Origin: Myxococcota bacterium
GTDB taxonomy: Bacteria; Myxococcota_A; Bradymonadia; UBA4248
Direction of reading: 5' to 3'
DNA: 64,000 nt
NCBI GenBank assembly: GCA_045599585.1
Contig: JAZRWH010000088.1
Span: 11,082-75,081, forward strand
Both the position numbers and the translations under genes were made by a program. Under the pieces are notes generated by a model that searched no databases, had not been told where the DNA came from, and saw nothing but the letters and a program-made list of their open reading frames with translations. Shown here in pieces: positions 2,441 to 59,093 of this stretch; the first letter of the stretch is position 1; each line of letters opens with the position of its first letter.

Positions 2441-2588
2441 GGGGGAAGAGTCCCCCTGAGCGTCTATTGTCTTCGCCGTTAGCACTAGGCTTATTTAGTC
2501 TATAATGCGTGTTATCGAAAGAAAGTGTTATCCGGTTTTAGTGGTTTGGTGCGAAGCCAATACGCCGCTACCCCTTCTGGCCTGCGGC
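2441..2588 (-). repeat. REP-like element copy 1 (92-nt insert)
   Basis: GGGGGAAGAGTCCCCCTGAGCGTCTAT ... ATACGCCGCTACCCCTTC, followed by the CCTGCGGC tail. For all copies, strand is the one reading GGGGTAGCGGCG. Confidence 0.9.
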
Positions 2589-2603
2589 GCGTCAACGATC
2601 ATG

Positions 2604-4250
2604 TTAAGCTTTGGGCGTCAACGATCTTGGAACGAGCGAGGCGTCGACGGCGTACCATTTGCCTTCGAGTCGAACGAGCGGCACAATGAAATAGTTTTCG
2701 CCAGATTCAAAGAGGACGACGAGGGCATTTTTGGATTCGGAGCCAGAAACAGTTTTAAGCGAGATGGCTTCAATGGTCTTAAAACGCGCCATAATTGCCT
2801 GTGGCATGGGTAGAAGGTCTTTTTCCCAAAGCGCAGCGGGTTCAAGGATGATGCTTTCATCTTTGGGCATTGCCATGAGCTTATTGGCTGCGCTGTAACA
2901 GCGTCCACGTTTTGCTTTAATCAGAGAGCTAATCGTTGCATTGACAGTCTGATTAGGTTGCTGTTGCAGGTTCGGCGAAGCGATGAGAAGCAAAATGACT
3001 GTGACGAGAAATAAAATGCCGCCGGCGATTGCAGAAAAGACAAAAGCAATGATCGTAAGACAGAGTCCAAAGGTCGTAGGCAGGAGCGAGAGCAGCACGT
3101 TGAGCATCTGTGCCTTACCAGGGGTATAGTCGTTTGGATCAGGGGTTGGGCAGTCGATGGTAAACTTATTTTCAAACTTGTAAGGTCTGAAATTTTTGAG
3201 CAATCGTTTGTCGATGGCTTCGCCTTTAGGTTCTTCTGTTTTGTCTTCGACAGCCAGGAGGCGTCTACGGCCTTCTTCAGAGAAGTCGTAGTTGACGGAT
3301 TTTACGGAGCGCAGATTATTAGCGTCACTGGTTGTGCTTTCGGGTTGTCGAATGCCGGTATTGTCTTGTTTTACGTTGACGACGTCGGCAATGCTATCGC
3401 GGCGTACAGCTTTTTCGTTGGCCGAGGAAGATTTTGCGACGTTAAATTTGTCGTCAAAGGAAAAGTCGAATCCGTCGATACCATTTTTGTTTTGTGCAAC
3501 GGCTTCTGCGGGACGGACAGGTGTTTTTTCTTGTTGGCTGATCGGTTTCGGGGCACCTTCATTTTGTGCTTTGATCGGCCGAGCTGGTGTTGCTGCTTGT
3601 TGACTTACTGGTCTTTCGGCAGAAGTCTTTTGGAACATTCCGGAGATTTTATTTTTAGAGGCAGCTTCTGCGACGCGCGGAATATGACGCAATCCGGAGT
3701 TTAAACTTGGCTCGGAGAACATACCCGATCCGGAGCGCGGAGGTGTAAGCAATCCGGAAGTTGTTTTGGGTGCTTTGATAAAGCCTGATTCTAAGCTTGG
3801 CTGTTGCGGTTCATCGGAATCAAAATTGATATTGAGATCGCTACCGGCCAAGGTTGGTCGACGCATACGTTCTCGGATGCGTTTGTTCGACTCACTACTT
3901 TCGAGCGGGCTTCTTTTACCCATATCCATGGGAGCATCCATGGGGCTTTTTTTGCCTAACGTCGAGAGTGATGGCAAGTTATTGTTCGCGCAAAAATCTT
4001 TGATCAGCCCAAGAAATCGTTCGTAATCGGCTTCGGCTTCTGGTGTAAAAGCGTGGAGCTGTTCGTAGATGACGTAGTCCATTTTATTGGCTTGTCGAAC
4101 GTCTTTGCAGAGATAAGCGCAGAAATCACGGCAAATTTCTTGGGCACGAGCTTGATCGCTAGCCGACAGGTTTCCCAAACGCGCAAGGTACTGGGCAAAC
4201 TCGTCAACAACGGCATCTACTGTATTTTCAAAGGAATCTTTCCACGCCAT
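2604..4250 (-). CDS. Hypothetical protein with a low-complexity Ser/Pro-rich middle and two C-terminal TM helices
   Basis: 548-aa ORF; hydrophobic stretch LNVLLSLLPTTFGLCLTIIAFVFSAIAGGILFLVTVILLLIA; no family recognised. Confidence 0.75.
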   Translation of the reverse strand: MAWKDSFENTVDAVVDEFAQYLARLGNLSASDQARAQEICRDFCAYLCKDVRQANKMDYVIYEQLHAFTPEAEADYERFLGLIKDFCANNNLPSLSTLGKKSPMDAPMDMGKRSPLESSESNKRIRERMRRPTLAGSDLNINFDSDEPQQPSLESGFIKAPKTTSGLLTPPRSGSGMFSEPSLNSGLRHIPRVAEAASKNKISGMFQKTSAERPVSQQAATPARPIKAQNEGAPKPISQQEKTPVRPAEAVAQNKNGIDGFDFSFDDKFNVAKSSSANEKAVRRDSIADVVNVKQDNTGIRQPESTTSDANNLRSVKSVNYDFSEEGRRRLLAVEDKTEEPKGEAIDKRLLKNFRPYKFENKFTIDCPTPDPNDYTPGKAQMLNVLLSLLPTTFGLCLTIIAFVFSAIAGGILFLVTVILLLIASPNLQQQPNQTVNATISSLIKAKRGRCYSAANKLMAMPKDESIILEPAALWEKDLLPMPQAIMARFKTIEAISLKTVSGSESKNALVVLFESGENYFIVPLVRLEGKWYAVDASLVPRSLTPKA

Positions 4251-4360
4251 TTTTTTCGTTTCCTTGAGCTAAGCCAAAAGTCATAAAACGCCGTTCTCTG
4301 CGCACAAAGGAACGTGCTGAAGTAAACTTTATTACCACGTCGTGCAAATGATATAAAGCA

Positions 4361-4954
4361 TTATAGAATCGCTCGAATGACGCTAAATAGTCCAATGGTA
4401 ATAAAGATGATGCCGGCGACCAGCTTACAGAGTGCGACTTTACCTTGAAGATGCTTTCCAATGTAATACCCACCGATCAAGATGACCGCGCCCCACATGG
4501 CACTTCCGATCAAGACACCGGGCAGGGTCAGAGGCATGGAATCGACCGAGGTGATTTCCAGCATTGGGAAGAGGAGGATCATGAGGCCCAGGGTAGCCGG
4601 AGAGATTGACAGCAAAAACGTTGTAACGCCGGTGGCTGCAATCTCTGTTGCTGTAAATTTTTTGGGTGGCTTATTTCGCGTAAAGATGAGCTGGGCACCG
4701 ATACAGGCAAATAAAGATCCAGTACAGACTTTAATAATCCAGGCGTAGTCTTGTGTCAGCGCCAGAACGTAGGACATTCCGATGAGCACGAGTACGGCCG
4801 AACATACGTCTGCGATGGCCATGACGATGACAGACGGCAGGCCTGTTTTCCAACCGTACGTCATGGTGCGTTCCAGACAAAATAATCCTACGGGGCCAAC
4901 TGGGATGGCGACGACCAATCCAACGATGATCCCCTTTAAAAAAGTAGTAAGCAT
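4361..4954 (-). CDS. LysE family translocator
   Basis: N-terminus FLKGIIVGLVVAIPVGPVGLFCLERT..G...G is typical of LysE/RhtB; 197 aa, about six TM segments. Confidence 0.85.
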   Translation of the reverse strand: MLTTFLKGIIVGLVVAIPVGPVGLFCLERTMTYGWKTGLPSVIVMAIADVCSAVLVLIGMSYVLALTQDYAWIIKVCTGSLFACIGAQLIFTRNKPPKKFTATEIAATGVTTFLLSISPATLGLMILLFPMLEITSVDSMPLTLPGVLIGSAMWGAVILIGGYYIGKHLQGKVALCKLVAGIIFITIGLFSVIRAIL

Positions 4955-5026
4955 ATAACCGTATTTCCGCGCAGAATATTCGTTTGCGCAATTTTAGACT
5001 TCTGTTTTGTCCTCACTGAGGTGCAG

Positions 5027-5058
5027 ACAAAATAAAACGCCGCCCAAGGGCGCGGCGC
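5027..5058 (-). terminator. Probable intrinsic terminator
   Basis: GC-rich hairpin CGCCGC...GCGGCG preceded by an A-rich run on the + strand (U tract on -), downstream of 5276..7117. Confidence 0.45.
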
Positions 5059-5190
5059 TTAAAATGACCTATACGGCATTTATTGCCAATTATTTAAGGT
5101 TTTTCTTAAATTTCCGACCTTAAAGTCGTTGTCTTTTAACGAAAATGAATAACAATAAAGTGTGTTTTGTTGAGCTGTTGCGTATTAGCT

Positions 5191-5256
5191 GCCGCAGGCA
5201 GAGGGGGTAGCGGCGTATCTCCGCAGGAGATAGCCGCTCAGGGGGAGGCTTCCCCC
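5191..5256 (+). repeat. REP-like element copy 2 (minimal form, 11-nt insert)
   Basis: GCCGCAGGCAGAGGGGGTAGCGGCGTATCTCCGCAGGAGATAGCCGCTCAGGGGGAGGCTTCCCCC. Confidence 0.95.
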
Positions 5257-5275
5257 TCAGAGCAGGATTCTCGCT

Positions 5276-7117
5276 TTAGAGGATGACCGTCTGGAGTTTT
5301 GTCTCCTGGGTCGTCCATTCGAACTGGTCGAGCAGGACGAGGGAGTCGCGCTGATGTCCCCAACCGTTTGTTTTACTCGCGTCGCGGTCGCCAGCGTCGA
5401 AGATGATGAGATCGAGGGTAAAGACTTCGCCTGGAACGATTGGGGCGGCCGTTTCGAGCCAGCGCGTTGCGCCAGCGCCCGTTGTATCAAAGTAGGCTTT
5501 GACGTTGGCTGAGCCGTCGGAGCATGTGCTGCTGTTGATGGTTTGGCTGCAGTTCGTGTTGTTTTTGCAGGCAGAGAGGTCGCACTCTGTGAAGAAGGCG
5601 TTGTTTACCGAAACGGGATTGCCTGCCGTGTCGAACGAAATGTTGTGGTCAGCGGGGATGTCGGGGTGCTGTGAGGAGAGGAGTGCGAGGAAGAAGTCGT
5701 TGTAATCGCTGCAGACGTAGTTGGGGAATTCTTTGGAGAAGAATTTGAAGCGGAATTTGAAGCCTGCGGCGTTGGCGGGGGCGTGGAATTTGAGGCGGAG
5801 CATCATGGAGTCGTTGGCTTTGGTACCGCCGCCGTTTGAGCAGAGGGAGCTTTTGGGGAGTTTACCGCCATGCGCATTCAGGTAGACGCTGGGTACAGAT
5901 ACTTCGGAACCCATGCAGTCTTTTGCGCCGGTGTTTTCGGAGCCCGTAGCTTTACCCGACGAGAGAATGGCCATGGTGTTGCCAGAGAGGGGGGCAATGG
6001 AAGGCGTGTTTCCGAGTTTGTTGACGACAGAGACTTGCTGCGAAGGGGAGATATTCGTCGCACTGCCACAAATGGACGTATTGCAGGATTTTTCGAGTGG
6101 TGAGCCATCCGCGTGGAGAAGTTGAGCACTGATGAGTCCGGAAGCGCCCGTTTCGGAAGCGCCCGTCACGCAGATATCCATTGCCTGAGCGAGTTTAAGC
6201 GCGTCAGCGTCTGTAAGCTGGACGTTTGCGTTGGGGATGTAGGCTGCTGTAGAGCATGAAGTCGCGGAGATGACATTATCAATTTTGCCATCACAGTCGT
6301 CATCGATACCATTTCCGGCGACTTCGATTGCGCCTGGATTTACTTTGGCTGGATCGTTAACGGCACAGGTGAGTGGGCTATCGCAGCAGTCTCCTTGTCC
6401 GACAGTCCAACCGTCACCGTCGATATCGTCGTCGGCGCCTTCATCGATTTGGCCGTCGCAATCATCGTCTAGACCGTTGCCAGGCGTTTCGATCCAAGCA
6501 GGCGTGACTTCGCCCTCGCAATCGAAGCTGAAATAGCCGTCGCTTTCGCAAACCTGTATGCCAGCTTTACAAATGCCTACGCCTAGTGTCGTGCTGACAG
6601 ACGAGTAGCAGGCGCGCGTTTCGCCGGGGACGCATTCGCATTCATTTGCGCGCGTCTCACAACCGTTGAGGAGATTACCATCGCAATCTGCGTAATTTGT
6701 ATTGCAGATGCATTGGCTATTGGAACACAGCATATTTGTGCCACACGGATTGTCGCATTCGCCGCAGTTATCGCTGTTGTTGCGTGTATCGATGCATTTG
6801 CCTCCACAGATCTTAGCGCCGGGGCCGTCACAGGAGGCTACACAAACACCATTTTTGCAGTACGAACTGGATTTGCAGGCATTACCTGCTTTGCCGCAGT
6901 TTTTGATATCCGACCTGAAGTCGACGCAGATTCCATTAGCACAACCGTTGGGACATGTGATCAGTGTGCAAGGATCGACGCTCGGCGTGTCGTCTTCAAT
7001 TCCTGTTTGCCCGCCAGATGTGCCGTTGTTATCTGTGGGCTCATTGTTGTCATTGCCATCAGAACAACCAGCAGTTAGAATGACTGTCAGCAATATTGCC
7101 ATCCATGATTTACGCAT
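5276..7117 (-). CDS. Cys-rich lipoprotein with MopE-related putative metal-binding repeats and a C-terminal choice-of-anchor L-like domain
   Basis: Lipobox ILTAGC after MRKSWMAILLTV (start moved to 7117, GGAG upstream); repeats NGLDDDCDGQIDE and NGIDDDCDGKIDN; C-terminal FKFFSKEFPNYVCSDYNDFF...NISFD...DAGD...DSLVLLD. Confidence 0.8.
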   Translation of the reverse strand: MRKSWMAILLTVILTAGCSDGNDNNEPTDNNGTSGGQTGIEDDTPSVDPCTLITCPNGCANGICVDFRSDIKNCGKAGNACKSSSYCKNGVCVASCDGPGAKICGGKCIDTRNNSDNCGECDNPCGTNMLCSNSQCICNTNYADCDGNLLNGCETRANECECVPGETRACYSSVSTTLGVGICKAGIQVCESDGYFSFDCEGEVTPAWIETPGNGLDDDCDGQIDEGADDDIDGDGWTVGQGDCCDSPLTCAVNDPAKVNPGAIEVAGNGIDDDCDGKIDNVISATSCSTAAYIPNANVQLTDADALKLAQAMDICVTGASETGASGLISAQLLHADGSPLEKSCNTSICGSATNISPSQQVSVVNKLGNTPSIAPLSGNTMAILSSGKATGSENTGAKDCMGSEVSVPSVYLNAHGGKLPKSSLCSNGGGTKANDSMMLRLKFHAPANAAGFKFRFKFFSKEFPNYVCSDYNDFFLALLSSQHPDIPADHNISFDTAGNPVSVNNAFFTECDLSACKNNTNCSQTINSSTCSDGSANVKAYFDTTGAGATRWLETAAPIVPGEVFTLDLIIFDAGDRDASKTNGWGHQRDSLVLLDQFEWTTQETKLQTVIL

Positions 7118-7620
7118 AATTCGTCTCCAACTTTGTATGCTGCGCACCCTTCATTGCGCATTGCCCTCAATCAAAGGGCGGCTAAAATAGCGGTCGCTTT
7201 TGTCCTTGTCGAGTGAAAACACGGTTGAATTGTAAGGTTCATTACGACTTAAGAGGTTTCCCGCGTGCCTTCAGCAAGCGGGAAGAAAGGGGGGCATCCT
7301 CCCTGCACGTCTTGCCATCCGGCTTCAACGGATGGGATGTTCAAGTTGACGGCTTACTGCCGCGTGAGTCAAGCGCGCGTTCACTTGGTCTCTTTAGGCC
7401 CCGACGGATTCGTAACCATGATTTTTCTATTTTTAGGGCTCTATCTTACGTTGGGCGGCATAATCTGGTAAAGATTTGACGGCAGGTTGAGTTGGTTCGT
7501 ATTTCTTGTCCTGCAGAAGGACCATACGTCCATGTCTATTAAAGCTTAAGCGTCGATTTGAATGCTTCGACGATTCCATTAGAGATCATACTTGTGCCTA
7601 TGTGGGCAGAAGGGGGTTAA

Positions 7621-11229: not shown

Positions 11230-11306
11230 GCGAGCTATTCGCTTTCGCGAATACGCTCGCTCGCTCGGCCGGCTATTCGCTTTCGCAAATACGCCGGCCT
11301 TTTTTT
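11230..11306 (-). repeat. Bulged-hairpin doublet A, probably also a terminator
   Basis: GCGAGC-TATTCGC-TTTC-GCGAATA-C-GCTCGC and GGCCGGC-TATTCGC-TTTC-GCAAATA-C-GCCGGCC, followed by a T7 tract, between convergent genes. Confidence 0.85.
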
Positions 11307-13627: not shown

Positions 13628-13693
13628 GCCGCAGGCAGAGGGGGTAGCGGCGTATCTTCGAAGAAGATAGCCGCTCAGGGGGAGGCTTCCCCC
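13628..13693 (+). repeat. REP-like element copy 3 (minimal form)
   Basis: GCCGCAGGCAGAGGGGGTAGCGGCGTATCTTCGAAGAAGATAGCCGCTCAGGGGGAGGCTTCCCCC. Confidence 0.95.
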
Positions 13694-21573: not shown

Positions 21574-23187
21574 ATGATCACACTGATTCCCTCACAAATG
21601 CCGCAGCAGGATCTTGGTATGATAGCGCAAGTGCTGATGGGGCAAGGATTTGTCCAGCAGCCGGCAAGTGAACGCAAGCGCGAAAGTCCAGCGATTGTAT
21701 TTTACACTGAGGACAAATCGAACATCGTGACGATGAAGTTTTACCAGGACATCGGTACACTTCGCGTCGAAACTCGCGGTGCAGCGGCCGACAAAATCGC
21801 CGTAGCCATGGGACAGTATATGGAAGCGATGACCGTCGCGAGTCTGACCGATTTGTTCGACGCATCCCAATCAGATATGGAGCGCCGCGTCTATGCAATC
21901 CTGTTGGTTTTGGCCTATCCAAGTGCACTGGATGCTCTTGCAGCCCTTCACGAGAAGTACATTAAAAATGGTAGTGAGGCGACGCGTGAAGGTATCGTAC
22001 AAGGCTTTGCGTTTTTGGAAACGCCGGATGTTGGTGACGCGCTAGAGTCTATCGAAGCTGAGTTTACGGGTCAGCCCATTGCTGTTTTGTGTCGTAAAGG
22101 CATCGATGCCCTCAGTGCACGTGGTCTGATCAAAGAGTCGCTCGCTTCCTTTATGAACAAAATACGCGGTATGGTCGATGATAAAGCAGCCGAAGCGGTG
22201 ACGATGATCGACAAGTATTGTGAGAACAACCCAGATGCGCCGGCATTGCGTGCGCTCAAAGCGCGCGCGTTGATCGTTTTGGGCAAATCAGATGAAGCTT
22301 CGGCGTTGTTGGCTCAGATCGATCTGAGCGATCCCGATGCGGCAGAAGCGTTTGTCGAGCGCGCTAAACTTCGTGAGGCTGGTCGATTTGTGGAATACGC
22401 CTTGCGCGACATTCAGTGTGCCTTGGCTCTCGAACCTGAAAACGAAGAAGCTGCCGTGATTTGTCGACGCTTGTCGATGTTGGCGACGCAAAAAGAATCA
22501 AGCGACGAAGAAAAACTGGCCGAGTATACGAAGGCGCTCGAAGAAAACGCTGAAGATGCCAATTTGCTTTGTCAACGTGCCGAATGTCTGTTGCACCTTG
22601 GCGAATTTGAAAAGGCACGTGCGGATGCGATTCATGCGCGCAAGCTTTCGGCAAACGATCCGCGTCTGCCGCTGATCTTGGGCGAAGCCTATTTGGGCAT
22701 GCGTTGGCTGGGGAGTGCACTTGAACAGGCTACGACAGCGCAGCGTGTATTTGCTGCTTCGCAGCGCGTCGAAGCCAGTCTTCTGAAAGTCCGGGTTTTC
22801 ATGGCAATCAATCGCATTGATGCCGCACGTCACGCGCTCCGCGAACTTGCACCCGAAATTCAGTTGGAGTCTGCTGTTAGACTTTATGCCGGTATTCTTG
22901 AGGAACTTTTAGGCAATGCGAATGAGGCGCGTGCGATTTATGCGGAGCTTACGGCTGATGAGATGAGCGCCGTCTTGCGTACACAGACACCTTGTCTATA
23001 CGTCAACCTTCCTGTTCTGCGCGAGTTTGCTTCGGCTGACGTTCCCGCAATTAGCGAACAGCCTGCAGTCGAACTCGACAAAGAGCCGATGGATCCTTAC
23101 TTTAAACGATGTGATGCTTGCGGTGCGCTTACCATGGCACGCCGAACCCTTTGCAAAGAATGCTCGAACGCGACTTTCTTTAGCTAA
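21574..23187 (+). CDS. TPR-repeat protein with a C-terminal zinc ribbon
   Basis: Repeated TPR-like helices (AFVERAKLRE, LLCQRAECLLHLGEFEKARAD); C-terminal CDACG...CKEC. Confidence 0.85.
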   Translation: MITLIPSQMPQQDLGMIAQVLMGQGFVQQPASERKRESPAIVFYTEDKSNIVTMKFYQDIGTLRVETRGAAADKIAVAMGQYMEAMTVASLTDLFDASQSDMERRVYAILLVLAYPSALDALAALHEKYIKNGSEATREGIVQGFAFLETPDVGDALESIEAEFTGQPIAVLCRKGIDALSARGLIKESLASFMNKIRGMVDDKAAEAVTMIDKYCENNPDAPALRALKARALIVLGKSDEASALLAQIDLSDPDAAEAFVERAKLREAGRFVEYALRDIQCALALEPENEEAAVICRRLSMLATQKESSDEEKLAEYTKALEENAEDANLLCQRAECLLHLGEFEKARADAIHARKLSANDPRLPLILGEAYLGMRWLGSALEQATTAQRVFAASQRVEASLLKVRVFMAINRIDAARHALRELAPEIQLESAVRLYAGILEELLGNANEARAIYAELTADEMSAVLRTQTPCLYVNLPVLREFASADVPAISEQPAVELDKEPMDPYFKRCDACGALTMARRTLCKECSNATFFS

Positions 23188-23199: not shown

Positions 23200-23255
23200 G
23201 GGGGAAGTATCCCCCTGAGCTGCTATCTTCTGCGAAGATACGCAGCTACCCCCTC
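23200..23255 (-). repeat. REP-like element copy 4 (minimal form, compensatory change)
   Basis: GGGGGAAGTATCCCCCTGAGCTGCTATCTTCTGCGAAGATACGCAGCTACCCCCTC; AGCTGC/GCAGCT replaces AGCGGC/GCCGCT. Confidence 0.95.
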
Positions 23256-24912: not shown

Positions 24913-26655
24913 ATGACAGACATCGCAGCACAGTCGATTGAAATTGCAAAACAGTGGGCCGCCGAACCTTTTGACGCCGAAACGCGAGCAGAAGTGCAAA
25001 AGCTCATCGATGCCAACGACATCGAAACGATCAAGAATCGATTTGGTGCCAGTATGCAGTTTGGAACTGCGGGTCTTCGCGGAGTCATGGGTGCCGGACG
25101 TACCATGATGAATATTTATATGATCGCCAAAGCCACGCGTGCCCTTGCGCAGTGTCTCATCGAAGAGTATGGCGATGAAGCTGTCAAACGTGGCGTTGTC
25201 GTAGGTTATGACTGCCGTCACAACTCTGAAAAATTTGCCAAGATGACCGCTGGCGTACTCGCGGCAAACGGCATTAAAGTTTATCTTTACGATCGTCTCA
25301 CGCCGACAAATCTCGTTCCGTTCGCAATTCGTACTAAGAACGCCTTTGCTGGTGTAATGATTACGAGCTCCCATAACCCCAAAGTTTACAACGGCTACAA
25401 AGTTTTCTGGTCCAATGGCGCTCAGATCATCAGCCCTGTCGATGCTCAAGTCGCTTCGCGTATGGACAAACTCGCTGACATTGGTAACGACAGCATTTCA
25501 GTCGAAGATGGCATTGCTAAAGGCCTCATTGAGATCATGGGCGATGCTATGATTGATGCTTATACTGACTGGGTCGTCAAAAGCGCCGTTCGTACAGGCA
25601 AAACGGACGTCGACGTCATTTATACACCGCTCGGCGGTACAGGTTGGGCATGTGCTAAAGCTTCTTTTGACAAAGCTGGCTTCAAAAAAGTTCGCGTTGT
25701 CGAAGAAGAAAAAACGCCTTCGGGAGATTTCGCAGGCCTCGATGCTCCTAACCCCGAACGCGCAGACACATGGCCGCGTGCGCTTAAAATGGCCAAAGAA
25801 GTCAACGCCGAAATTGTCCTCGCAAACGACGGTGATGCTGACCGCCTCGGTGTTGCAATCCCCGTTAACGGTGAATACAAAGTCCTTGGTGGCAACCAAA
25901 TTGGTGCCCTCATGCTCAACTACATCATCGAAAACCTCGCGGATGACAAACGCAATACCGATAGCTTTGCTATTTGCTCTGTCGTTTCGAGCCCCCTTAC
26001 GCGCGCCATCTGCGAAAATGCTGGCGTTGATTTCCAAGAAACCCTCACTGGTTTTAAATGGATGGGCAATGTCGCTGATCAGCGCGTGAAATGTGGTCAG
26101 AACTTCCTCTTCGCCTATGAAGAAGCCTTCGGTTTCACCTTTAGTGATGCTCGCGATAAAGACGGTATCATCTCAGTTCTCCTCCTCGCTGAACTTGCTG
26201 CCGATTGTAAAGCCAAAGGCAAACGCGTGATCGACGTCCTTGACGAAATTTACATTAATAACGGTATTCACTGCGAAGATGCTGCAGAGCGCTTCTACGA
26301 AGGTCTCTCTGGCAAAGACACGATGGCTAAAGTCCTCTCTGACCTCCGCAACAATCCGCCTGCAGCTATCGCTGGTATAGACGTCGCCTGCGTTCGCGAT
26401 CTCCTCAATTCGCGTACGACAGATCTCAAATCCGGCGAAGTTATTCCCGTTATCCATCTCCCCAAACAGGATATGCTTACCTTCTATCTCGCAGATAATA
26501 GCTGGATTTCCTTGCGTCCCTCTGGCACCGAGCCCAAACTTAAAGCCTACCTTGGCGTCATCGGTCACGCCTCAAAAGACGAATATCCCGTTATTAAAGC
26601 GGCGCTCGAATACAAACTTGCTAATATCAAAAAAGCTGTCAAAGAAATGCTCTAA
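24913..26655 (+). CDS. pgm: Phosphoglucomutase/phosphomannomutase
   Basis: FGTAGLRG, phosphoserine loop TSSHNP, DGDADR, YEEAFG, RPSGTEPKLKAY. Confidence 0.95.
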   Translation: MTDIAAQSIEIAKQWAAEPFDAETRAEVQKLIDANDIETIKNRFGASMQFGTAGLRGVMGAGRTMMNIYMIAKATRALAQCLIEEYGDEAVKRGVVVGYDCRHNSEKFAKMTAGVLAANGIKVYLYDRLTPTNLVPFAIRTKNAFAGVMITSSHNPKVYNGYKVFWSNGAQIISPVDAQVASRMDKLADIGNDSISVEDGIAKGLIEIMGDAMIDAYTDWVVKSAVRTGKTDVDVIYTPLGGTGWACAKASFDKAGFKKVRVVEEEKTPSGDFAGLDAPNPERADTWPRALKMAKEVNAEIVLANDGDADRLGVAIPVNGEYKVLGGNQIGALMLNYIIENLADDKRNTDSFAICSVVSSPLTRAICENAGVDFQETLTGFKWMGNVADQRVKCGQNFLFAYEEAFGFTFSDARDKDGIISVLLLAELAADCKAKGKRVIDVLDEIYINNGIHCEDAAERFYEGLSGKDTMAKVLSDLRNNPPAAIAGIDVACVRDLLNSRTTDLKSGEVIPVIHLPKQDMLTFYLADNSWISLRPSGTEPKLKAYLGVIGHASKDEYPVIKAALEYKLANIKKAVKEML

Positions 26656-26678: not shown

Positions 26679-26748
26679 CGCAGCCTATCGGCTTTGCCAA
26701 TACGGCTGCGCAAAGCGGCTATCGCTCACGCGATACGCCGCTTTTTTT
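26679..26748 (-). repeat. Bulged-hairpin doublet E, probably also the pgm terminator
   Basis: CGCAGCC-TATCGGC-TTT-GCCAATA-C-GGCTGCG and AAAGCGGC-TATCGC-TCAC-GCGATA-C-GCCGCTTT, followed by a T tract. Confidence 0.85.
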
Positions 26749-30011: not shown

Positions 30012-30168
30012 GAGGGGGTAGCGACGTATCGCCGAAGGAAATGGATCAAGTTTCGTAGATGGTAGCCGAATATGGCTGAGTTGCTGTAAACGAAAGCTTT
30101 ACGACAATGTGAACAATGTTGATGAGCCGTTTCCGAAGAAGATAGGCGCTCAGGGGGAGACATCCCCC
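30012..30168 (+). repeat. REP-like element copy 5 (112-nt insert)
   Basis: GAGGGGGTAGCGACGTAT ... ATAGGCGCTCAGGGGGAGACATCCCCC. Confidence 0.9.
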
Positions 30169-32937: not shown

Positions 32938-33082
32938 GGGGGAAGTGTCCCCCTGAGCGGCTATCTGTTCGCCCCAAGTCCTTCAGCTTTAATGCAATCT
33001 GTTGCGCTTCGTTTGAGTTTAGCTTTGTAAACGCTTTTTTAAGCTATGAACTTGGGCGATACAGATACGCCGCTACCCCCTC
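32938..33082 (-). repeat. REP-like element copy 6 (100-nt insert)
   Basis: GGGGGAAGTGTCCCCCTGAGCGGCTATCTGTTCGCCCCAAGT ... ACTTGGGCGATACAGATACGCCGCTACCCCCTC. Confidence 0.93.
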
Positions 33083-37014: not shown

Positions 37015-37083
37015 CCGCCTATTGCATTCGCAATACGGCGGACGCAAAGCCGCTATTTGCTCTCGCAAATACGCGCCTTTTTT
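37015..37083 (-). repeat. Bulged-hairpin doublet F
   Basis: CCGCC-TATTGC-ATTC-GCAATA-C-GGCGG and GC-TATTTGC-TCTC-GCAAATA-C-GC, followed by a T tract. Confidence 0.8.
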
Positions 37084-37222: not shown

Positions 37223-37336
37223 GAGGGGGTAGCGGCGTATTGCCAAAGACCAAGGCAGGCGTTTGGATGCATTACGGAATAAGGGGCTATTGTGCCTTGG
37301 GCAATGGCAATAGCCGCTCAGGGGGAGGCTTCCCCC
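37223..37336 (+). repeat. REP-like element copy 7 (69-nt insert)
   Basis: GAGGGGGTAGCGGCGTATTGCCA..CCAAGGCA ... TGCCTTGG..TGGCAATAGCCGCTCAGGGGGAGGCTTCCCCC. Confidence 0.93.
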
Positions 37337-37645
37337 CCACAAAAAAAAGATTTCTTCAAGCTGAACACTGTTGCGTTCGTTCGTAAGTCATAAATTGCCT
37401 GCCATGCTTTTTGGCTAGATACAAAAAGAATGATTTGAATTGTCAAGTGAAACAAATTAAAAAAGAATCAAGAAAAACCTATAAAATTCAATGAATTAAG
37501 AGAATGGAAAGAAAAAAAAACAAATTTTTTGTTTTCAAAAAAAGGCGACTTGTGTAAAAAGTGAGTGTGTTCGAAAGAGAACTTTTGGACGATAAGCCCG
37601 AGACCGAGCGTTTTGCTGGCGGGCAATTACAGACTTTAGTTTTTC

Positions 37646-45505: not shown

Positions 45506-45593
45506 GAGAGGGTCGCGGCGTATTTCTGAAAAAGGCAGCTTTAGAAAAGCTGCGCTTTTGAAAGAAATAGCCGCGCAGGGGGAAACTTCCCCC
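45506..45593 (+). repeat. REP-like element copy 8 (43-nt insert, compensatory change)
   Basis: GAGAGGGTCGCGGCGTATTTCT ... AGAAATAGCCGCGCAGGGGGAAACTTCCCCC; CGCGGC/GCCGCG replaces AGCGGC/GCCGCT. Confidence 0.9.
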
Positions 45594-47802: not shown

Positions 47803-47817
47803 TCATTCATATAAGTG

Positions 47818-47983
47818 GGGGGAAGTCTCCCCCTGAGCGTCTATCAGCTTTGCCAAGGATGCATCTTCATCGTCATTTTCGCGTTTCGGCGTTCTGTCAC
47901 GGCCCCTAGGCCGCTCCCTCCGCCTCGCGCTCGATGCCTCGAATCTGCATCACTTGTCTTCGCTGATACGCCGCTACCCCCTC
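47818..47983 (-). repeat. REP-like element copy 9 (121-nt insert)
   Basis: GGGGGAAGTCTCCCCCTGAGCGTCTAT ... ATACGCCGCTACCCCCTC; the insert is homologous to that of copy 10. Confidence 0.93.
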
Positions 47984-53260: not shown

Positions 53261-53301
53261 AGTGTATCGAAGCTTGGATGGATGTTGTCGGCCAAGAGCC
53301 A

Positions 53302-53467
53302 GAGGGGGTAGCGGCGTATCAGCGAAGTCAATGAATGCAGATTCGAGGAAACGAGCGTAAGGCGGAGGGAGCGGCCTGGTGGCCGTGACGGAACGCTGAG
53401 ACGCGAAGCTGACGAAGAAGATGCGACGTTGGCTTCGCTGATAGACGCTCAGGGGGACACTTCCCCC
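53302..53467 (+). repeat. REP-like element copy 10 (121-nt insert)
   Basis: GAGGGGGTAGCGGCGTATCAGCGAAGTCA ... TGGCTTCGCTGATAGACGCTCAGGGGGACACTTCCCCC. Confidence 0.93.
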
Positions 53468-53648
53468 AATACTTCCCCTCAATTTTTTCGAAGTTATCAT
53501 TAATATTTTGGACGCAAAGTGCGAACCAAACGTCCAAATGGCGTAGTTCCATAGAATTGTTGATATAAAATATTCAAGATATTGTCATGTATGTCGTATA
53601 TTATTCGTTAACGGCATGGACAAAGCGTAAAATACGATCGGTTGTGGT

Positions 53649-55019: not shown

Positions 55020-55075
55020 ATCGTGCGCGATGAACGCAGCATGTGTGCGAAGGTTTCGGTTAGTAAAGGAAAATA

Positions 55076-56758
55076 ATGACAACATCTCTAAGCGCGTCAG
55101 AACAGACAAACGCGCAGCCCTGTGTAAAAGTATTATCGATTGGTGGGACGGGCGTATTTGGCATGAACTGCCTGCTCATGACCACGCCAGAACGCCGTAT
55201 TTTGATCGATTGTGGCGTATTGTTTCCCGCAGATGAAGACCTTGGCGTCGACCTGATTACGCCAGATTTTTCGGTACTCGAAAACGATCCGCCTGATGCG
55301 CTTCTCGTCACACATGCCCACGAAGACCACGTGGGTGCGATCCCTTATCTTCTGATGGCACTCAAAAAAGGCGGAATGAAGCGTAAACTCGCGATTTATG
55401 CTTCAGACATCACAACAGCATTTATTCGTCGTCGTCTGATTGAGCATGATCTTGAGTTAAGCGTTGATTTTCATGTTGTTTCGCCCAAACACACCGAGCA
55501 ACTCGGAGATATAAGCGTCGAATTTATCGATGTTTGCCACTCCATTCCGGGATCATTGGCATTTGCCTTTGACACGCCATGCGGCAAGATCGTTCATTCT
55601 GGTGACTGGCGTATTGACAATACGCCTATGGCTGGTGCCAAGACCAACCTCGCGCGCTTTGAATCTCTCGGTGATGGCGGTGTTCGACTCTTTTTGAGCG
55701 ATTCGACGAACGTCGAGGTCGATAATCATAACATTACGAGTGAGCTCGATGTTTTTAACGACCTACAAAAATGTATCAAAGATGCCGAAGGACGTGTTTT
55801 TGTAACGCTTTTTGCGTCGAATATTGGACGTCTTCAATCGCTGATTTTTGCAGCAGCCAATGTCGGTCGAAAACTTGCGGTCTGCGGGCGATCCATGACG
55901 GCAAACATGAACCTCGCTCGCGAACTAGGTTATCTGACGATTCCAGTTAACCTTGAGATTGTTCCTGAAGAAAAGATTCAAGATGCGGGAGATAATATTG
56001 TTATTGTCGTTTCGGGGTCTCAGGGCGAAAAAGCTGCATCGCTCTACAAGATTTCGCAAGGCGTTCATCCCAAGATCAAGCTTAAGCAGGGCGACATGTT
56101 GATCTATTCAGCGCGTCAAATTCCCGGCAACGAACGACGCGTCGGTTCGATTATCAACGGGTTTTATTGTCAGGGCGCTTCGATTGTCGATGCCCCAGAG
56201 CTCCATTTGCACAGTTCTGGTCACGGCAATCAGCGCGAACTTGAGCTTCTTATCGAACTTATTGCGCCCGAGATTTTCGTTCCGATTCACGGCGATTTCC
56301 GTCGCCTTGCACTTCACGAAAAACTTGCACAGCGCATCGAAACGAAGACGACGACAGAGATTCTTCAGGAAGGTCAATGCCTGTGCCTTTATCCCGATCG
56401 CCACGAAATTCACGACGGCTTTGAGCCGCTTCGACGTTATGTTGTCGGTAAATGTCCCGATGGCATCAATGCAGACATCGTCAAAGAAAAGAAAAATATT
56501 GCCCACCAAGGCATTGTCATTATCAATGGTGTGCTTGATCAACGCGATATGCTCGTGGGTGAGCTTTCGGTGCATGTCATTGGTGTTTGCGTCAACGATG
56601 GCTGGCAGGATGAGCTTCTGCCCGAAATCCTGCGCACGATCACGAGCAGTGCGAATCATGGCGATATGACGGAAATCGTGCGTCATAAAGCCGCGAAATA
56701 CATAAAATCTGTCCTTGGTCGAATGCCAACGATCGTCGTCGATTTCCATCGCATTTAA
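55076..56758 (+). CDS. rnj: Ribonuclease J
   Basis: IDCGVLFP, THAHEDHVGAIPY, HSIP, HSGDW, SDSTN, SGSQGE, IPGNE, HSSGH, VPIHG. Confidence 0.93.
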   Translation: MTTSLSASEQTNAQPCVKVLSIGGTGVFGMNCLLMTTPERRILIDCGVLFPADEDLGVDLITPDFSVLENDPPDALLVTHAHEDHVGAIPYLLMALKKGGMKRKLAIYASDITTAFIRRRLIEHDLELSVDFHVVSPKHTEQLGDISVEFIDVCHSIPGSLAFAFDTPCGKIVHSGDWRIDNTPMAGAKTNLARFESLGDGGVRLFLSDSTNVEVDNHNITSELDVFNDLQKCIKDAEGRVFVTLFASNIGRLQSLIFAAANVGRKLAVCGRSMTANMNLARELGYLTIPVNLEIVPEEKIQDAGDNIVIVVSGSQGEKAASLYKISQGVHPKIKLKQGDMLIYSARQIPGNERRVGSIINGFYCQGASIVDAPELHLHSSGHGNQRELELLIELIAPEIFVPIHGDFRRLALHEKLAQRIETKTTTEILQEGQCLCLYPDRHEIHDGFEPLRRYVVGKCPDGINADIVKEKKNIAHQGIVIINGVLDQRDMLVGELSVHVIGVCVNDGWQDELLPEILRTITSSANHGDMTEIVRHKAAKYIKSVLGRMPTIVVDFHRI

Positions 56759-56767
56759 TTTTGAGGT

Positions 56768-56823
56768 GGGGGAAGTTTCCCCCTGAGCGGCTATTTCCTG
56801 CGGAAATACGCCGCTACCCCCTC
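56768..56823 (-). repeat. REP-like element copy 11 (minimal form)
   Basis: GGGGGAAGTTTCCCCCTGAGCGGCTATTTCCTGCGGAAATACGCCGCTACCCCCTC. Confidence 0.95.
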
Positions 56824-57104
56824 TGTGCCGTGGGCAATAAGAAAGCTGATTTTATGAATTTTTTTGTTCAGCTTTGAAGAATATTTAAGAGCGATCTTGA
56901 ATAACGCGATAGAATCAAGTTTGCAGCTCAGAAATTGAATAAGGCACAATGGAATAGGGATTAAGCCTTAGATGTTAATAGCGTTGTGTGGGTTGCTTGC
57001 CTACATTTGTTCATAGCAATCACCCCCATCGTGTGTTACAATGTAGGTGCAGGGCAGGCACTTGGTTCATCTGCTGTTTTTAGTCGTAGTTTTTTAGGGT
57101 TATC

Positions 57105-58916
57105 ATGCTTCAGCTTGAAGTCATATCAGGAAAGAGTATCGGCAAACGCGCGACGTTTAGCAGTCGTGTTGTTCGTATTGGCACGGCAGCCGAGAATGAT
57201 TTTCAGCTTGATGACGAGCTGGCTAGCCGTAACCATGGCATTTTTGTTGTAAGGCCTGGTCACAACTCGTACGTCTATCGAGATTTGTTGAGCACCCATG
57301 GATCGCGTGTTCATACGAACGCAACGGATGTCGTACTGTTGGATCACCAGGTACCGCAATCTGTTTTGCTTTCGCATGAAGTAATCATTCACGTTGGTCG
57401 AAGTACGATCAAATGTCTTTGTCGAGCGGACGAACCGGAAGACAGCTGCGACAAGGTTTCGCTGATTGAAGAAGTTTCATGTAAAGGCAACACGGGGATC
57501 AGTGCATCCAAAGAAGTCGAGCAGCTTTTAGGCAGTCTTCGAGAGGTAGCGTACAAAACGTCGCTTCGCGACACGTTTAAGAGCATGATTGATTCAGCTT
57601 TTGCGTATGCGCCCGATATAGATCACGGAACGATTTGGCAGTGCGACCGAGATCGCTGTATTTTTTCGTGTGCGTTTGAGCGTATGCGTCGACAGCAACA
57701 GGGAACGGCATCGGTTGGTTTAACGCAGTTCAAAAAGGCACTTGAGAAAGACGAATCCACCTTACTTCTTGTCAATCGAATGAGCGGGGAGAAGATTGTT
57801 CCGTCGAACGTGTTGATCATTCCAGTATGCGAAGAGTTTTTCAGTGAGACGATTGTTGTTTTTGAGTCACTGAAGCCGATAACGCACGGAATGATTGGTT
57901 GGCTAATAGAGCTTGTCAAAAACGCATCGATCTCAGCGGCGCGGACGTATCAGAATGCGGATTTATACGATGTTTTAGACGGGTTTATCCGTTCGACGAT
58001 CTCAGCGTTTGATACGCGCGACCCTGCTTCTGCGGGGCATTCGACTCGTGTTTCGAATTACGTGTTAATGACGGCGCATGTGATTGATTCGCAGACGACG
58101 GGTCCGTTTGCTTCGACGTCTTTTTCGCGGGATGAGTTTGATGAGCTGCGTTATGCGGCGCTTTTGCATGACATTGGCAAGATTTCTGTACGCGAAGAGA
58201 TCGTATTGAAATCGGGTCGATTATTTCCACGCGATTACACGTCCTTGCTTGAGCGCATTGATTTATTTTCGGCGTGGTTTGAGACGCAGACGCCCGAGAA
58301 GTTGGGTGCAGCGTGGCGTTCTCAGGAGACCTTTGCGCATTATCGAGAGTTAGTGGGTCGACTTCAGCACGCAGATGCACCGATTATGGATGCAGATCGA
58401 GCGTACATGGAAGAAATGCGTAAGACGTTCATCACGACGCGTCCGACCCTTCCGTTGTTGTCAGCGAATGAGCACAAGAATCTTTTAATTCCGTACGGAA
58501 CGCTGAATGCAGATGAGCGCCGAGATATTCAGCAGCATGCATTAATATCGTGGCGCTATTTATCGCGAATTTTGTGGCCGCGCCGTTGGTCTCGCGTACC
58601 ATCGTTTGTTCTTCAGCATCATGAGAAGCTCAATGGTACGGGATATCCGTACGGAATAAGCGGCGAAGCCATATTTTTACAGAGTCGAATTCTCACCGTA
58701 TGCGATATTTTTGATGCGCTGACGGGGGGAGACAGGCCCTATAAGCAGCGACATTCTTTTTCGGAAGCGGCAGAAATTCTGATTCGGGATGCCGATCGCG
58801 GAGCACTTGATAAGGACGTTACAAATCTCTTTATCGAGCAAGTTTTGCCTCAGATTTGTGATCTTGATTCGAGTTATGCGGAGCTTTCGAGTGCCGGCAT
58901 TCCGTCGATGGCTTAA
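57105..58916 (+). CDS. FHA - GAF-like - HD-GYP cyclic dinucleotide phosphodiesterase
   Basis: FHA motifs (RIGT...ASRNH...DLLSTHGS); GHSTRV, LLHDIGK, HHEKLNGTGYP, DIFDALT..RPYK. Confidence 0.9.
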   Translation: MLQLEVISGKSIGKRATFSSRVVRIGTAAENDFQLDDELASRNHGIFVVRPGHNSYVYRDLLSTHGSRVHTNATDVVLLDHQVPQSVLLSHEVIIHVGRSTIKCLCRADEPEDSCDKVSLIEEVSCKGNTGISASKEVEQLLGSLREVAYKTSLRDTFKSMIDSAFAYAPDIDHGTIWQCDRDRCIFSCAFERMRRQQQGTASVGLTQFKKALEKDESTLLLVNRMSGEKIVPSNVLIIPVCEEFFSETIVVFESLKPITHGMIGWLIELVKNASISAARTYQNADLYDVLDGFIRSTISAFDTRDPASAGHSTRVSNYVLMTAHVIDSQTTGPFASTSFSRDEFDELRYAALLHDIGKISVREEIVLKSGRLFPRDYTSLLERIDLFSAWFETQTPEKLGAAWRSQETFAHYRELVGRLQHADAPIMDADRAYMEEMRKTFITTRPTLPLLSANEHKNLLIPYGTLNADERRDIQQHALISWRYLSRILWPRRWSRVPSFVLQHHEKLNGTGYPYGISGEAIFLQSRILTVCDIFDALTGGDRPYKQRHSFSEAAEILIRDADRGALDKDVTNLFIEQVLPQICDLDSSYAELSSAGIPSMA

Positions 58917-58932
58917 GGAATGAAGTATAAGC

Positions 58933-59093
58933 GCCGCAGGCGAAGAGGGGGTAGCGGCGTATTCGCGAAGCCATGGGCAATCGAATGGCGTAAGCGCGTA
59001 CGAAGGGGAAGGAACGGCTAAAGGCTGAGCTTGAATGCTAATGCGCGAGATGTCTTGGCTTCGCGGATAGACGGTCAGGGGGAGACTTCCCCC
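58933..59093 (+). repeat. REP-like element copy 12 (104-nt insert)
   Basis: GCCGCAGG..GAGGGGGTAGCGGCGTATTCGCGAAGCCA ... TGGCTTCGCGGATAGACGGTCAGGGGGAGACTTCCCCC. Confidence 0.9.

Follow-up and report, generated by a model that had tools for sequence, protein, structure and literature searches.

A REP-like hairpin element with a variable tip, and a candidate RAYT-like nuclease, in one family of Myxococcota

The sequence GAGGGGGTAGCGGC, with up to 2 mismatches allowed, matched 12 times in the 64-kb window (the whole stretch of DNA analysed, from an uncultured Myxococcota MAG), 7 times on the + strand and 5 times on the - strand; 100 dinucleotide shuffles of the window gave a mean of 0.17 matches, and none reached 12. 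Pairing of 5' and 3' arms yielded 12 complete elements from the 12 matches, with inserts between GTAT and ATAG of 11, 11, 11, 11, 43, 69, 92, 100, 104, 112, 121 and 121 nt. Arm search and pairing thus reproduced all the copies, mixed orientations and insert lengths of the original prediction, although three of its start positions (5191, 13628 and 58933) take in an extra upstream mini-hairpin, GCC-GCA-GGC, and the element itself begins later.

Short forms lie at 5201..5256 (+; 11-nt tip CTCC-GCA-GGAG, mini-hairpin upstream from ~5190, DNA fold of -23.7 kcal/mol with z -4.55), 13638..13693 (+; 11-nt tip CTTC-GAA-GAAG), 23200..23255 (-; compensated stem change GCTGC/GCAGC, 13 nt past the stop of ORF 21574..23187) and 56768..56823 (-; 10 nt past the stop of ORF 55076..56758). 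Longer copies lie at 2441..2577 (-; 92-nt insert, 27 nt past the stop of the - strand ORF 2604..4250), 30012..30168 (+; 112-nt insert), 32938..33082 (-; 100-nt insert), 37223..37337 (+; 69-nt insert), 45506..45593 (+; 43-nt insert, a GTCG/GCGCAG variant with a fold z of -6.38) and 58945..59093 (+; 104-nt insert, mini-hairpin upstream from ~58933). The copies at 47817..47983 (-) and 53302..53467 (+) carry 121-nt inserts of one family, 83% identical to each other. Two copies, 13638 and 32938, lie between divergent ORFs, as had been predicted. Generic bulged G-TAT/ATA hairpins also occur on the - strand outside the 12, at 11232..11258 (with a different outer stem), 26716..26740 and 37016..37040; the second of these looks like a terminator, as a T-run comes after it when read on the + strand, 61 nt past ORF 24913..26655.

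The element consists, in order, of an optional GC mini-hairpin (the GCC-GCA-GGC above, present in about a quarter to half of copies genome-wide), a single-stranded GAGGGGGTA tag, a stem, the variable tip, TCA and a second, 3' hairpin of the form G5-N4-C5. Within the stem, a GC clamp (GCGGC/GCCGC) encloses a bulged G and three A-T pairs (G-TAT/ATA). The stems covary: 91% of cells were paired, as against 45-60% when partners were slid, and 54 cells were changed on both sides, as against 20.9 in shuffles, with 0 of 500 shuffles reaching 54. DNA folds had z scores of -3.5 to -6.4. Both strands folded equally well under nearest-neighbour models, and G.T and A.C mismatches were about equally frequent (77 and 64). 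Purine loops were strand-specific (GAAG 185, CTTC 51), and loops included C-GNA-G triloops, a stable motif of the DNA type. The GTAG at the foot of the palindrome had been put forward as the signature of RAYT-associated sequences; this was not supported: half of the GTAG lies within the stem, and covariation links its A to the base opposite. In the 45506..45593 copy, the A and its partner T have changed jointly to C and G.

The source genome (G000; 4.2 Mb) contained 525 5' arms and 464 3' arms, forming 458 paired elements that together span 41,345 nt (0.98% of the 4.2 Mb). Copies were dispersed in both orientations, without arrays. A covariance model matched G000 and 15 of 16 relatives from the same taxonomic family, and 0 of 96 genomes from other families in the class; the repeat family is confined to one taxonomic family. 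The number of 5' arms with 0, 1, 2 and 3 mismatches dropped steeply (290, 113, 23 and 8), with no tail of decayed arms in the G000 distribution, and arms carried ~1 mismatch per 34 nt irrespective of insert. A recent burst of 99 near-identical short forms (tip TTGC...GCAA) was found alongside older, heterogeneous long forms. In one relative (G004, genus g3), the elements formed a homogeneous 63-nt population that retains the outer frame and lacks the G-TAT/ATA core, which shows the two to be separable.

We compared 35 spacers of conserved gene pairs between G000 and its congeners G001 and G002. Eleven were occupied in either genome and only 1 in both, and empty spacers were short. The shared spacer, orthologous to that of 47817..47983, holds in G001 a copy inverted relative to G000 with an unrelated 46-nt insert. 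The G001 spacer orthologous to that of 53302..53467 has no copy; the spacer of 56768..56823 contains a copy with a 50-nt insert in G002 and an ordinary hairpin plus T-run terminator in G001. Copy positions at orthologous sites are therefore not identical, and species differ by gains and losses of copies. No target duplication of at least 4 bp was found, direct repeats of 4-5 bp at any offset reaching at most 11 of 458 copies. Between tandem genes, 70% of copies lay closer to the upstream stop codon, at a median of 36 nt for anti-oriented copies.

Across G000, tips ranged from 5 to 164 nt. Genome-wide, the four positions at one end of the insert pair with the four at the other, with Watson-Crick covariation, and among 198 long inserts the perfect stems at the ends were far longer than in a control pairing left and right ends from different inserts, which upholds the predicted self-complementarity of insert ends. 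The companion claim, that each insert extends the stem with a different sequence, was only partly correct: of 200 long inserts, 61 begin with 14 nt that recur, at 2 mismatches or fewer, at the start of an insert of another length (control mean 5.05, maximum 13); 55 of these form one cluster. Conservation declines from base towards tip, the 121-nt insert family includes deletion derivatives, and other REPs are nested within tips. Four close RAYT-like loci have identical outer stems and a TAT-ATA stretch that differs discretely, from 11 to 62 nt; tip lengths across these four loci were 24 / 26 / 13, 12 / 11 / 11 / 43 and 11 / 62 / 62 / 62 nt. The TAT-ATA stretch thus behaves as a real slot, whose content is hairpins and not genes, and tips change by discrete events (internal deletions, nesting of small REP hairpins and wholesale replacement) that leave the flanking stems unchanged.

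The original prediction had gone further and proposed that cargo is carried or exchanged at this fixed site. The slot is real, but its content is non-coding hairpin sequence only, and no insert was seen moving between sites. An attC-like exchange, in which a single-strand recombinase swaps the TAT-ATA segment between arms acting as sites, would fit the whole-tip differences bounded exactly by TAT and ATA in otherwise identical hairpins at the four homologous loci, the compensated variation of the basal 4-bp stem even within one homologous insert family, and the combination of an extrahelical G with a variable terminal structure. We nevertheless consider it unlikely. Of the 208 inserts of at least 25 nt, 190 match nothing else in G000 and 197 are unrelated to any other insert, so no cassette is seen at two sites and, long inserts being unique, no donor was found; the two inserts searched gave no match to phage (30012) or plasmid (53302). 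Moreover, inserts contain no ORFs, copies do not form arrays, and the base-to-tip conservation gradient is more readily explained by local indels than by exchange. G000 has three tyrosine recombinases (XerD, an XerC-like protein and one weak match), all under the integron-integrase cut-offs, and no integron integrase was found.

The bulged core extends beyond the element. Short-tip X4-G-TAT...ATA-X4' hairpins numbered 551 in G000, whereas seven control triplets gave 0-3; of the 551, 243 are the element and 308 have other stems. Counts of the form GCC-G-TAT...ATA-GGC were 25-247 per genome for 14 of the 16 family relatives (177 for G000), 2-4 for two more family genomes and zero for G003, and did not exceed two in any of the 24 genomes scanned outside the family. 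Generic core hairpins are over-represented in convergent spacers (101), and 51 of them follow an A-run, equivalent to a T-run terminator when read from the opposite strand. Such placement, together with the proximity of tandem-pair copies to upstream stop codons, the constant arm divergence whatever the insert and the ordinary terminator at one orthologous G001 site, could point to a host structural motif (terminators, mRNA 3' stabilisers or sites bound by a clade-specific protein) selected at each site. This is improbable, however, given that congeners share only the one spacer of 11, that divergent spacers hold copies roughly pro rata (58 of 408), that copies run both with and against the neighbouring genes (120 co, 159 anti), and that the last hairpin of the composite element is followed by an A-rich, not T-rich, tract, T-runs being almost absent. 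The burst of TTGC short forms and the uniform G004 population also speak against it.

A structured non-coding RNA family with a variable-length stem would account for the conserved single-stranded linkers and two covarying helices, but it is very hard to reconcile with the 57% of tandem-context copies antisense to flanking genes, the DNA-type triloops and the lack of wobble bias; nor did any Rfam family match, whether the window was searched at the gathering score or a 6-kb stretch with three copies at E <= 1. An IS30-family IS (NF033563, 276.6 bits) inserts specifically in the loop of the element's 3' hairpin, with ~47-52 junctions, all in that loop and with GAC on either side, and generates a 3-bp target duplication. 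That the element is a miniature derivative (MITE) of this IS, which interrupts 44 of 67 unpaired 5' arms, deserves almost no credence, since IS and element ends are dissimilar, the element lacks the duplication made by the IS, and the distribution (of 17 family genomes, the IS was found in only 2 and the element in 16) refutes it.

The original prediction also held that the mobilising enzyme is encoded elsewhere. Contig C94 of G000 carries a 252-aa ORF for a divergent RAYT-like Y1-HUH protein; it and its relatives retain the HUH motif and the Y-I-x-N-N tyrosine. The family scored 32-42 bits against the REP_Tyr_transpos model, short of the 80 bits set as the curated RAYT cut-off, its best PDB sequence match was TnpA-REP (4er8), and in a fold search the 19 best chains listed were all Y1 transposases (prob 0.99-1.00, target TM 0.48-0.62). 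Arrays of G-TAT/ATA hairpins precede these genes: at 9 of 15 loci examined, hairpins lay 36-280 nt upstream on the opposite strand, where a rough estimate from hairpin density gives a chance rate of ~2.5% per locus. Strong matches were limited to genera g1 (3 of 3 genomes) and g4 (4 of 11). Some genomes carry several copies of the gene, and its identity between genera is 82-92%; in this it departs from RAYTs, which are single-copy and inherited vertically, and it looks horizontally shared. No Y1 gene was flanked by the full 58-nt composite element: its arms were within 1.5 kb at 0 of 24 PF01797-match loci, and among further weak-match loci only G001:C335 has a full copy, ~500 nt upstream. At E <= 1e-5, the gene was not found in 6 of 11 hairpin-rich g4 genomes, including the 99% complete G007, nor in g5, although g5 has the element. 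Loss from MAGs is possible, because the gene often lies on short or truncated contigs. The nuclease and its hairpin arrays thus support an enzyme encoded elsewhere, but 6 of 13 genomes from the two hairpin-rich genera show no such gene.

On balance, we favour, with modest confidence, a REP-type non-autonomous mobile hairpin element of a new RAYT-like system; the predicted REP-like, hairpin-forming, non-autonomous character of the repeat is borne out. Copies of this small, clade-specific element would act as folded single-stranded DNA. The bulged G-TAT/ATA hairpin may be the structure recognised by the C94-type nuclease, as their genomic association suggests, and movement would be of a single-strand, peel-and-paste type. 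Tip changes would be tolerated because they leave the recognised core undisturbed, and some may be produced by this nuclease, or by a related HUH enzyme, acting at the exposed loop. Set against this reading are the equal folding of both strands with similar G.T and A.C mismatch counts, the patchy distribution of the candidate gene and its lack of flanking composite elements, its multi-copy state and high identity between genera, the protein scores under the RAYT cut-off, the separable core and frame in G004, the lack of a donor for any insert, and the orientation of copies: IS608-type insertion into the lagging-strand template predicts a bias, but no GC-skew orientation bias was seen (101:101 and 68:85).

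Integron attC sites resemble the element as folded single-strand sites with extrahelical bases, conserved ends and variable terminal structure, and their size range, 57-141 bp, is similar overall; unlike them, the element is dispersed both ways, with no integron integrase, cassette arrays or ORFs found. The IS200/IS605 insertion sequences and their miniature derivatives share with the present system the Y1-HUH fold, hairpin recognition and the absence of a target duplication of at least 4 bp. They differ in that TnpB is absent from G000, no skew-linked orientation bias exists here, and the element's arms pair together instead of forming separate left-end and right-end hairpins.

Insertion sequences that target one precise position within a palindromic repeat, as here, belong in Tobes and Pareja (2006, PMC1525189) to the IS3, IS110, IS4, IS256 and IS5 families, a list that does not include IS30. 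In Corneloup et al. (2021, PMC8266576) and Di Nocera et al. (2013, PMC3733652), REPs, like the myxococcotal element, are imperfect palindromes that occur between genes in high copy number, with a conserved foot tetranucleotide, a bulged stem (the bulge being needed for E. coli TnpA-REP activity) and CT/CA immediately 3' of the hairpin. Their loops are likewise variable, with complementary ends of up to 27 bp in GTAG-14, and in REPtrons, too, the Y1-HUH gene is preceded by arrays of its own hairpins. A GGGGWSAS motif that adjoins tyrosine transposase genes (PMC8266576; PMC3733652) agrees with GGGGAGAC in the element's 3' hairpin. Di Nocera et al. (2013, PMC3733652) describe REPs nested in other palindromes and mosaics of a REP and an unrelated stem-loop, both as here; the word Myxococcota has 0 occurrences in that survey. 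Unlike RAYTs, the candidate nuclease is 230-270 aa long with a variable central insert, falls under the curated threshold, and has the multi-copy, apparently horizontal distribution noted above. Unlike the REPs described there, the element has as its common word an internal bulged G-TAT paired with ATA and not a free 5' GTAG, bears tips of up to 164 nt that are mostly unique, and keeps one sequence across a whole taxonomic family.

The repeat family described in the original prediction is real, and richer than first described. We searched the window for the 14-mer GAGGGGGTAGCGGC, allowing up to 2 mismatches, and found 12 matches, of which 7 are in plus and 5 in minus orientation, as compared to a mean of 0.17 in shuffled sequence. 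Pairing of the 5' and 3' arms recovered 12/12 elements, with insert lengths identical to those predicted. Printed in one orientation, the copies follow a common plan: GAGGGGGTAGCGGC-G-TAT, the insert, ATA-GCCGC-TCA, and GGGGG-N4-6-CCCCC. A match to a known Rfam family, which would have counted against the original prediction, was not found, with 0 matches at the gathering score for the 64-kb window and 0 at E <= 1 for 6 kb with three copies.

We then counted the element across the source genome (G000), a 4.2-Mb MAG in 203 contigs (completeness 95.7%, contamination 5.9%). Allowing each arm 3 mismatches or fewer, we counted 525 5' arms and 464 3' arms, forming 458 paired elements and leaving 67 5' arms and 6 3' arms unpaired; element DNA makes up 0.98% of the genome. 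Insert lengths (n = 458) peak at 10–11 nt (174/458) and are then nearly flat from 13 to ~123 nt, with a few up to 164 nt. Arm positions are 91–100% conserved, with the exception of a few subfamily positions. The G that stays unpaired where the GC clamp gives way to TAT is invariant, and TCA follows the hairpin in 91–98% of copies. An A-rich tract lies downstream of the copies, and a mini-hairpin of the GCC-GCA-GGC type lies upstream of about one quarter to one half of them; this mini-hairpin is seldom found away from the element, with the 5' arm following it in 122/204 occurrences.

DNA folding prediction (z -3.5 to -6.4) gave the mini-hairpin, GAGGGGGTA as a single strand, a hairpin from which one G bulges out, and a second hairpin. 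When 28 short forms, drawn from G000 plus four or more further genomes, were aligned, helix positions paired in 91% of cells, as compared to 45–60% with slid partners, and both-side changes occurred in 54 cells versus 20.9 in shuffles (0/500 shuffles reached 54). Within G000, covariation links the first four insert positions to the last four, position 11 of the 5' arm to position 5 of the 3' arm (L11-R5), and position R15 to R22. Copies of the composite element conserve the GTAG tetramer at 97–100%. Two of its bases, the A and the G, lie in pairs, and the A changes together with its partner (AT 416, CG 11). Among the 174 short inserts there are 72 distinct tips, 158 of the inserts form a perfect 4-bp stem, and the tips close in a C-GNA-G triloop, a C-AAA-G triloop or a TT loop. 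In long inserts, C-GNA-G lies at an equal offset from either end. Purine-rich internal loops of long inserts occur on the + strand only (GAAG 185 versus CTTC 51), and this asymmetry points to the + strand as the one that would fold; nearest-neighbour energies and wobble counts gave no strand distinction.

Changes at base 3 of the 5' tag and at the fifth G of the second hairpin go together, like with like (L2, R15 and R22). Across all copies, the link between GAAGGGG and GGGGAAGG was counted as GG 387, AA 46, AG 23 and GA 2; in one example, GAAGGGG occurs with GGGGAAGGCCTTCCCC, and the same subfamily is found in another MAG (locus L035). These linked bases probably reflect nested subfamily descent. 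A triplex or mirror (base-triple) reading of the GAAGGGG link is less favoured, nested descent being the simpler explanation.

Gene context was determined using a crude longest-ORF call, by which tandem gene pairs hold 279 copies (120 co-oriented, 159 anti-oriented), convergent spacers 71 and divergent spacers 58, and 29/458 copies fall within ORFs of at least 100 aa. Copies are distributed roughly in proportion to the spacer classes, and in tandem pairs 70% of them are closer to the upstream stop codon. Orientation relative to GC skew revealed no replication-strand bias. We rejected an intrinsic terminator for the composite element, with its A-rich downstream tract and T-runs numbering 0–1.

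The bulged core is not confined to the composite element. A search for X4-G-TAT-(stem-loop)-ATA-X4' with short tips returned 551 hairpins in G000, as compared to 0–3 for seven control triplets, and 695 when long tips were allowed. The 551 divide into 243 that belong to the element and 308 with other outer stems, a split that depends on the filter and was 193/358 in another count. The generic hairpins, about 300 in number, lack the 5' GTAG, their constant word being the internal G-TAT. The other-stem hairpins often form tandem pairs, are enriched between convergent genes, and carry A-runs, never T-runs, on the G-TAT strand; 51 generic hairpins have an upstream A-run and are terminator-like on the opposite strand. 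One such hairpin is in the window at 26716-26740, where it lies after an ORF, is followed by a T-run on the + strand and resembles an intrinsic terminator, and two further window hairpins with other outer stems are at 11232-11258 and 37016-37040. The GCC version of the hairpin numbers 177 in G000, 25–247 per genome in 14/16 relatives and 2–4 in two more; it was absent from the relative G003, and reached at most 2 copies in any of 24 genomes scanned outside the family.

Using the 28 short forms, we built a covariance model, a check proposed in the original prediction; scoring up to 48 candidates per genome, it matched G000 and 15/16 family genomes, and 0/96 genomes of the class's other families. 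In the genus of one relative (G004), the outer frame is kept and the G-TAT/ATA core is absent, and nearly all copies are 63 nt. Turnover at orthologous spacers, as anticipated for a mobile element, was evident when we compared 35 conserved adjacent gene pairs between G000 and its congeners, for which coding DNA identity is only ~70%. At least one genome has an element in 11 of the spacers, and just 1/11 is filled in both genomes; the two elements there are in opposite orientation and have unrelated inserts. At one site (window 56700-57120), G000 and the congener G002 carry an element with different tips, and the congener G001 carries an ordinary GC hairpin and T-run terminator (L017:4100-4500). 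The distribution of 5' arm mismatches had no tail of decayed copies; this distribution covered 434 5' arms at up to 3 mismatches versus the 525 of the main count, since the looser non-overlapping pattern can mask neighbours, and its shape alone was used. A metagenome scan for close strains returned only relatives at 36–50% identity, and no public sequencing run was listed for the window. A tip beginning TTGC is present in 56% of short forms versus 1% of long forms, and a G.A mismatch clamp variant in 33% of long forms versus 6%. Arm mismatches per 34 nt rise from 0.88 in TTGC short forms to 1.05 in other short forms and 1.22 in longer forms. Because of this tip dominance and mismatch gradient, we read the family as one in which a single short form burst recently, beside older long forms.

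The original prediction treated the inserts as cargo to be traced to the host genome, phages or plasmids, and for most inserts no source elsewhere in the genome was recovered. Among 208 inserts of 25 nt or more, 197 had no relative among the inserts and 190 matched only themselves in the genome; neither of two elements tested matched a phage or plasmid. A family of 121-nt inserts has ~13–16 members, including internal-deletion derivatives. The first 14 nt are shared with an insert of another length for 61/200 long inserts versus 5.05 in the control, and 55 of those 61 form one cluster with lengths of 31–151 nt. Conservation therefore declines from the stem base to the tip. Two long inserts (G000:C187:55370-55492 and G000:C197:15974-16103) have a 57-nt piece in common that is found at six or more further genome sites; this piece is a further small repeat lodged inside the tip.

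That discrete changes really do occur at the tip position is best supported by an alignment, read by eye, of four close copies of the RAYT-like gene locus (G000:C94, G002:C52, G012:C53 and G012:C92, the last two from a family relative). The outer stems and spacers of these loci are identical, and the stretch from TAT to ATA varies: the first hairpin tip is 24, 26 or 13 nt, the second is 12, 11, 11 or 43 nt, and the third is 11 nt in G002 versus 62 nt in the other three loci. Long tip versions hold a GTAGAGACGC...GCGTCTC hairpin, a different type of REP, copies of which both flank the ORF on contig C94 and lie inside it. The same hairpin fills element tips in G002, and variants of it fill tips in G001 and the relative G006. 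The predicted variable slot at a fixed site stands as a place of discrete tip change, and the material that occupies it is small hairpins.

Standard searches first argued against a link to RAYT nucleases, because the composite element was present at 0/24 PF01797 loci across the family and the RAYT model NF047646 scored above its cut-off in only 3/17 family genomes. Weak NF047646 matches nevertheless led to a candidate in G000, an ORF of 252 aa on contig C94, with relatives of 227–270 aa. These proteins have an N-terminal YRI..R..W..Y..G.Y motif, an HUH motif, a variable central insert, and C-terminal W-Q-x-R-F/Y and Y-I-E-N-N-V motifs; the HUH motif and the tyrosine are invariant in 7 sequences. 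NF047646 gives 32–42 bits, below its cut-off of 80, and PF01797 21–25 bits versus a cut-off of 23. The best solved-structure match by sequence is TnpA-REP (4er8). The predicted structure has a mean pLDDT of 62, with core blocks of 80–96, and in a fold search with it, each of the 19 best chains listed was a Y1 transposase. On this modelling, the family is assigned a Y1-HUH fold.

At 9/15 RAYT-like loci the covariance model gave partial matches, to the hairpin part only, 36–280 nt upstream of the gene and on the opposite strand. In an alignment of that region, G-TAT/ATA hairpins form a conserved array, two or three to a locus. An HUH gene adjoined by copies, as sought in the original prediction, was found for the G-TAT/ATA hairpins, and not for the full composite element. 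We infer that the C94-type protein acts on G-TAT/ATA hairpins and would cut one of their strands, and the tip changes may be enzymatic. The main evidence against the link is that no RAYT-like gene was detected in six hairpin-rich MAGs of genus g4, and that no Y1 gene is flanked by a whole composite element. Strong profile matches were restricted to genera g1 (3/3) and g4 (4/11), with 7/13 counted for the g1 and g4 genomes together; none was found in g5, and many matches are cut by contig ends. The RAYT-like proteins of the four aligned loci are 82–92% identical, as compared to ~30–90% (typically ~60%) for ordinary orthologs between the two genera, suggesting that the locus may have moved horizontally, and recently. 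A GTAGAGACGCAAAATTTTGCGTCTCTAC-type REP occurs upstream of and inside the RAYT-like ORF (L215, on G000:C94, at 196-226, 371-401, 634-690 and 905-934). Within the central region of the ORF it forms two separate in-frame stretches that leave the frame open, and at the matching position the G002 and G015 relatives contain repetitive peptides.

Several other candidate mobilisers were also tried. The standard PF01797 search identified two IS200/IS605-type Y1 transposase genes in G000, L001 (G000:C151:9715-10260) and L002 (G000:C55:4585-5121), each flanked by other repeats; these are hairpins of the GCGGCTTCCAGCCGC and GTCCCGAAGGGAC types, unrelated to the element. A RAYT-like ORF of G001 has no homolog in G000. 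TnpB (PF07282) is encoded in 3/17 genomes and IS110 (PF01548) in 6/17, G000 in neither case among them, and a search for genes flanked by three or more hairpins gave 4 candidates and 0 nucleases. We also rejected a DDE-type MITE: no 4–5 bp direct repeat flanks the copies at any offset, and the element ends are unlike those of the resident IS30-family element. Membership of the integron attC sites, which the original prediction brought in for comparison, was not supported, since the integron-integrase models scored 41–130 bits versus cut-offs of 265 and 435, and the copies are dispersed in both orientations, with no cassette arrays. Because reverse transcriptase (PF00078) is absent from G000, we no longer read the A-rich 3' flank as the mark of a retro-element.

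Many of the unpaired arms are associated with an insertion sequence (IS). We observed that 44/67 unpaired 5' arms run into either end of a 1043-bp IS at contig ends (G000:C106:1-1043, L110). There are 47 and 52 junctions with the two IS ends, nearly all 117–141 nt from the contig end, and one lies just past the window (G000:C88:75662-75850, L128). Junctions are preceded by GGGGGAGAC when read along one strand and by GGGGGAAGTC when read along the opposite one, placing GAC on both sides of the IS, and in all of them the landing site is the loop of the element's second hairpin. The transposase belongs to the IS30 family (NF033563, 276.6 bits versus a cut-off of 80; Pfam HTH_38 and rve), and the IS has inverted ends. 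It was found in G000 alone, apart from one fragment in G002. The IS does not mobilise the element but parasitised it later, and is probably the cause of much of the assembly fragmentation; it provides a clean case of a second parasite living only in the loops of the first. Three copies are interrupted by the end of a third mobile element (its sequence begins TGAAGTGTCCCCC...), each at a different position and all at contig ends (C67:30820, C72:32696 and C74:3448, + strand); one of the interruptions falls exactly after GTAT.

A bolder and rather unlikely reading of the tip changes is that a divergent RAYT-like nuclease cuts at the TAT and ATA boundaries, and would thereby excise, insert or swap the tip, beyond copying whole hairpins. 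If so, the ~700–1000 hairpins per genome would be miniature single-strand recombination sites with exchangeable content, comparable to attC cassettes but without genes, and would give the genome its own source of new hairpin forms. Nature has provided filled versus empty comparisons at a fixed hairpin position, and the Y1-HUH cut site and tip remodelling are therefore directly testable.

Most of what is known of REP sequences and RAYT nucleases comes from Proteobacteria, and the mode of REP spread is still unclear. Three motif words gave no literature match, and no description of REP-type repeats in Myxococcota was found among the literature matches listed, which comprise titles and abstract openings; supplementary REP lists may bear on novelty. 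The element family is best filed with the REP/RAYT kind. Like REP sequences, its members are high-copy, mostly intergenic imperfect palindromes (458 paired copies, 29 in crude ORFs) with covarying helices; they have a stem irregularity as in group 2 REPs, here the invariant bulged G; and, for the G-TAT/ATA hairpins, a Y1-HUH gene has cognate repeats adjoining it. The candidate proteins fall below the curated RAYT cut-off. What is new relative to REP/RAYT systems is a mosaic element whose core, the putative recognition feature, is an internal bulged G-TAT/ATA hairpin, a tie to a divergent RAYT-like family missed by curated models, and turnover of the hairpin tip by discrete events. An uncultured Myxococcota clade thus offers a sequence-conserved, highly abundant REP-like family together with a candidate nuclease that escapes those models.
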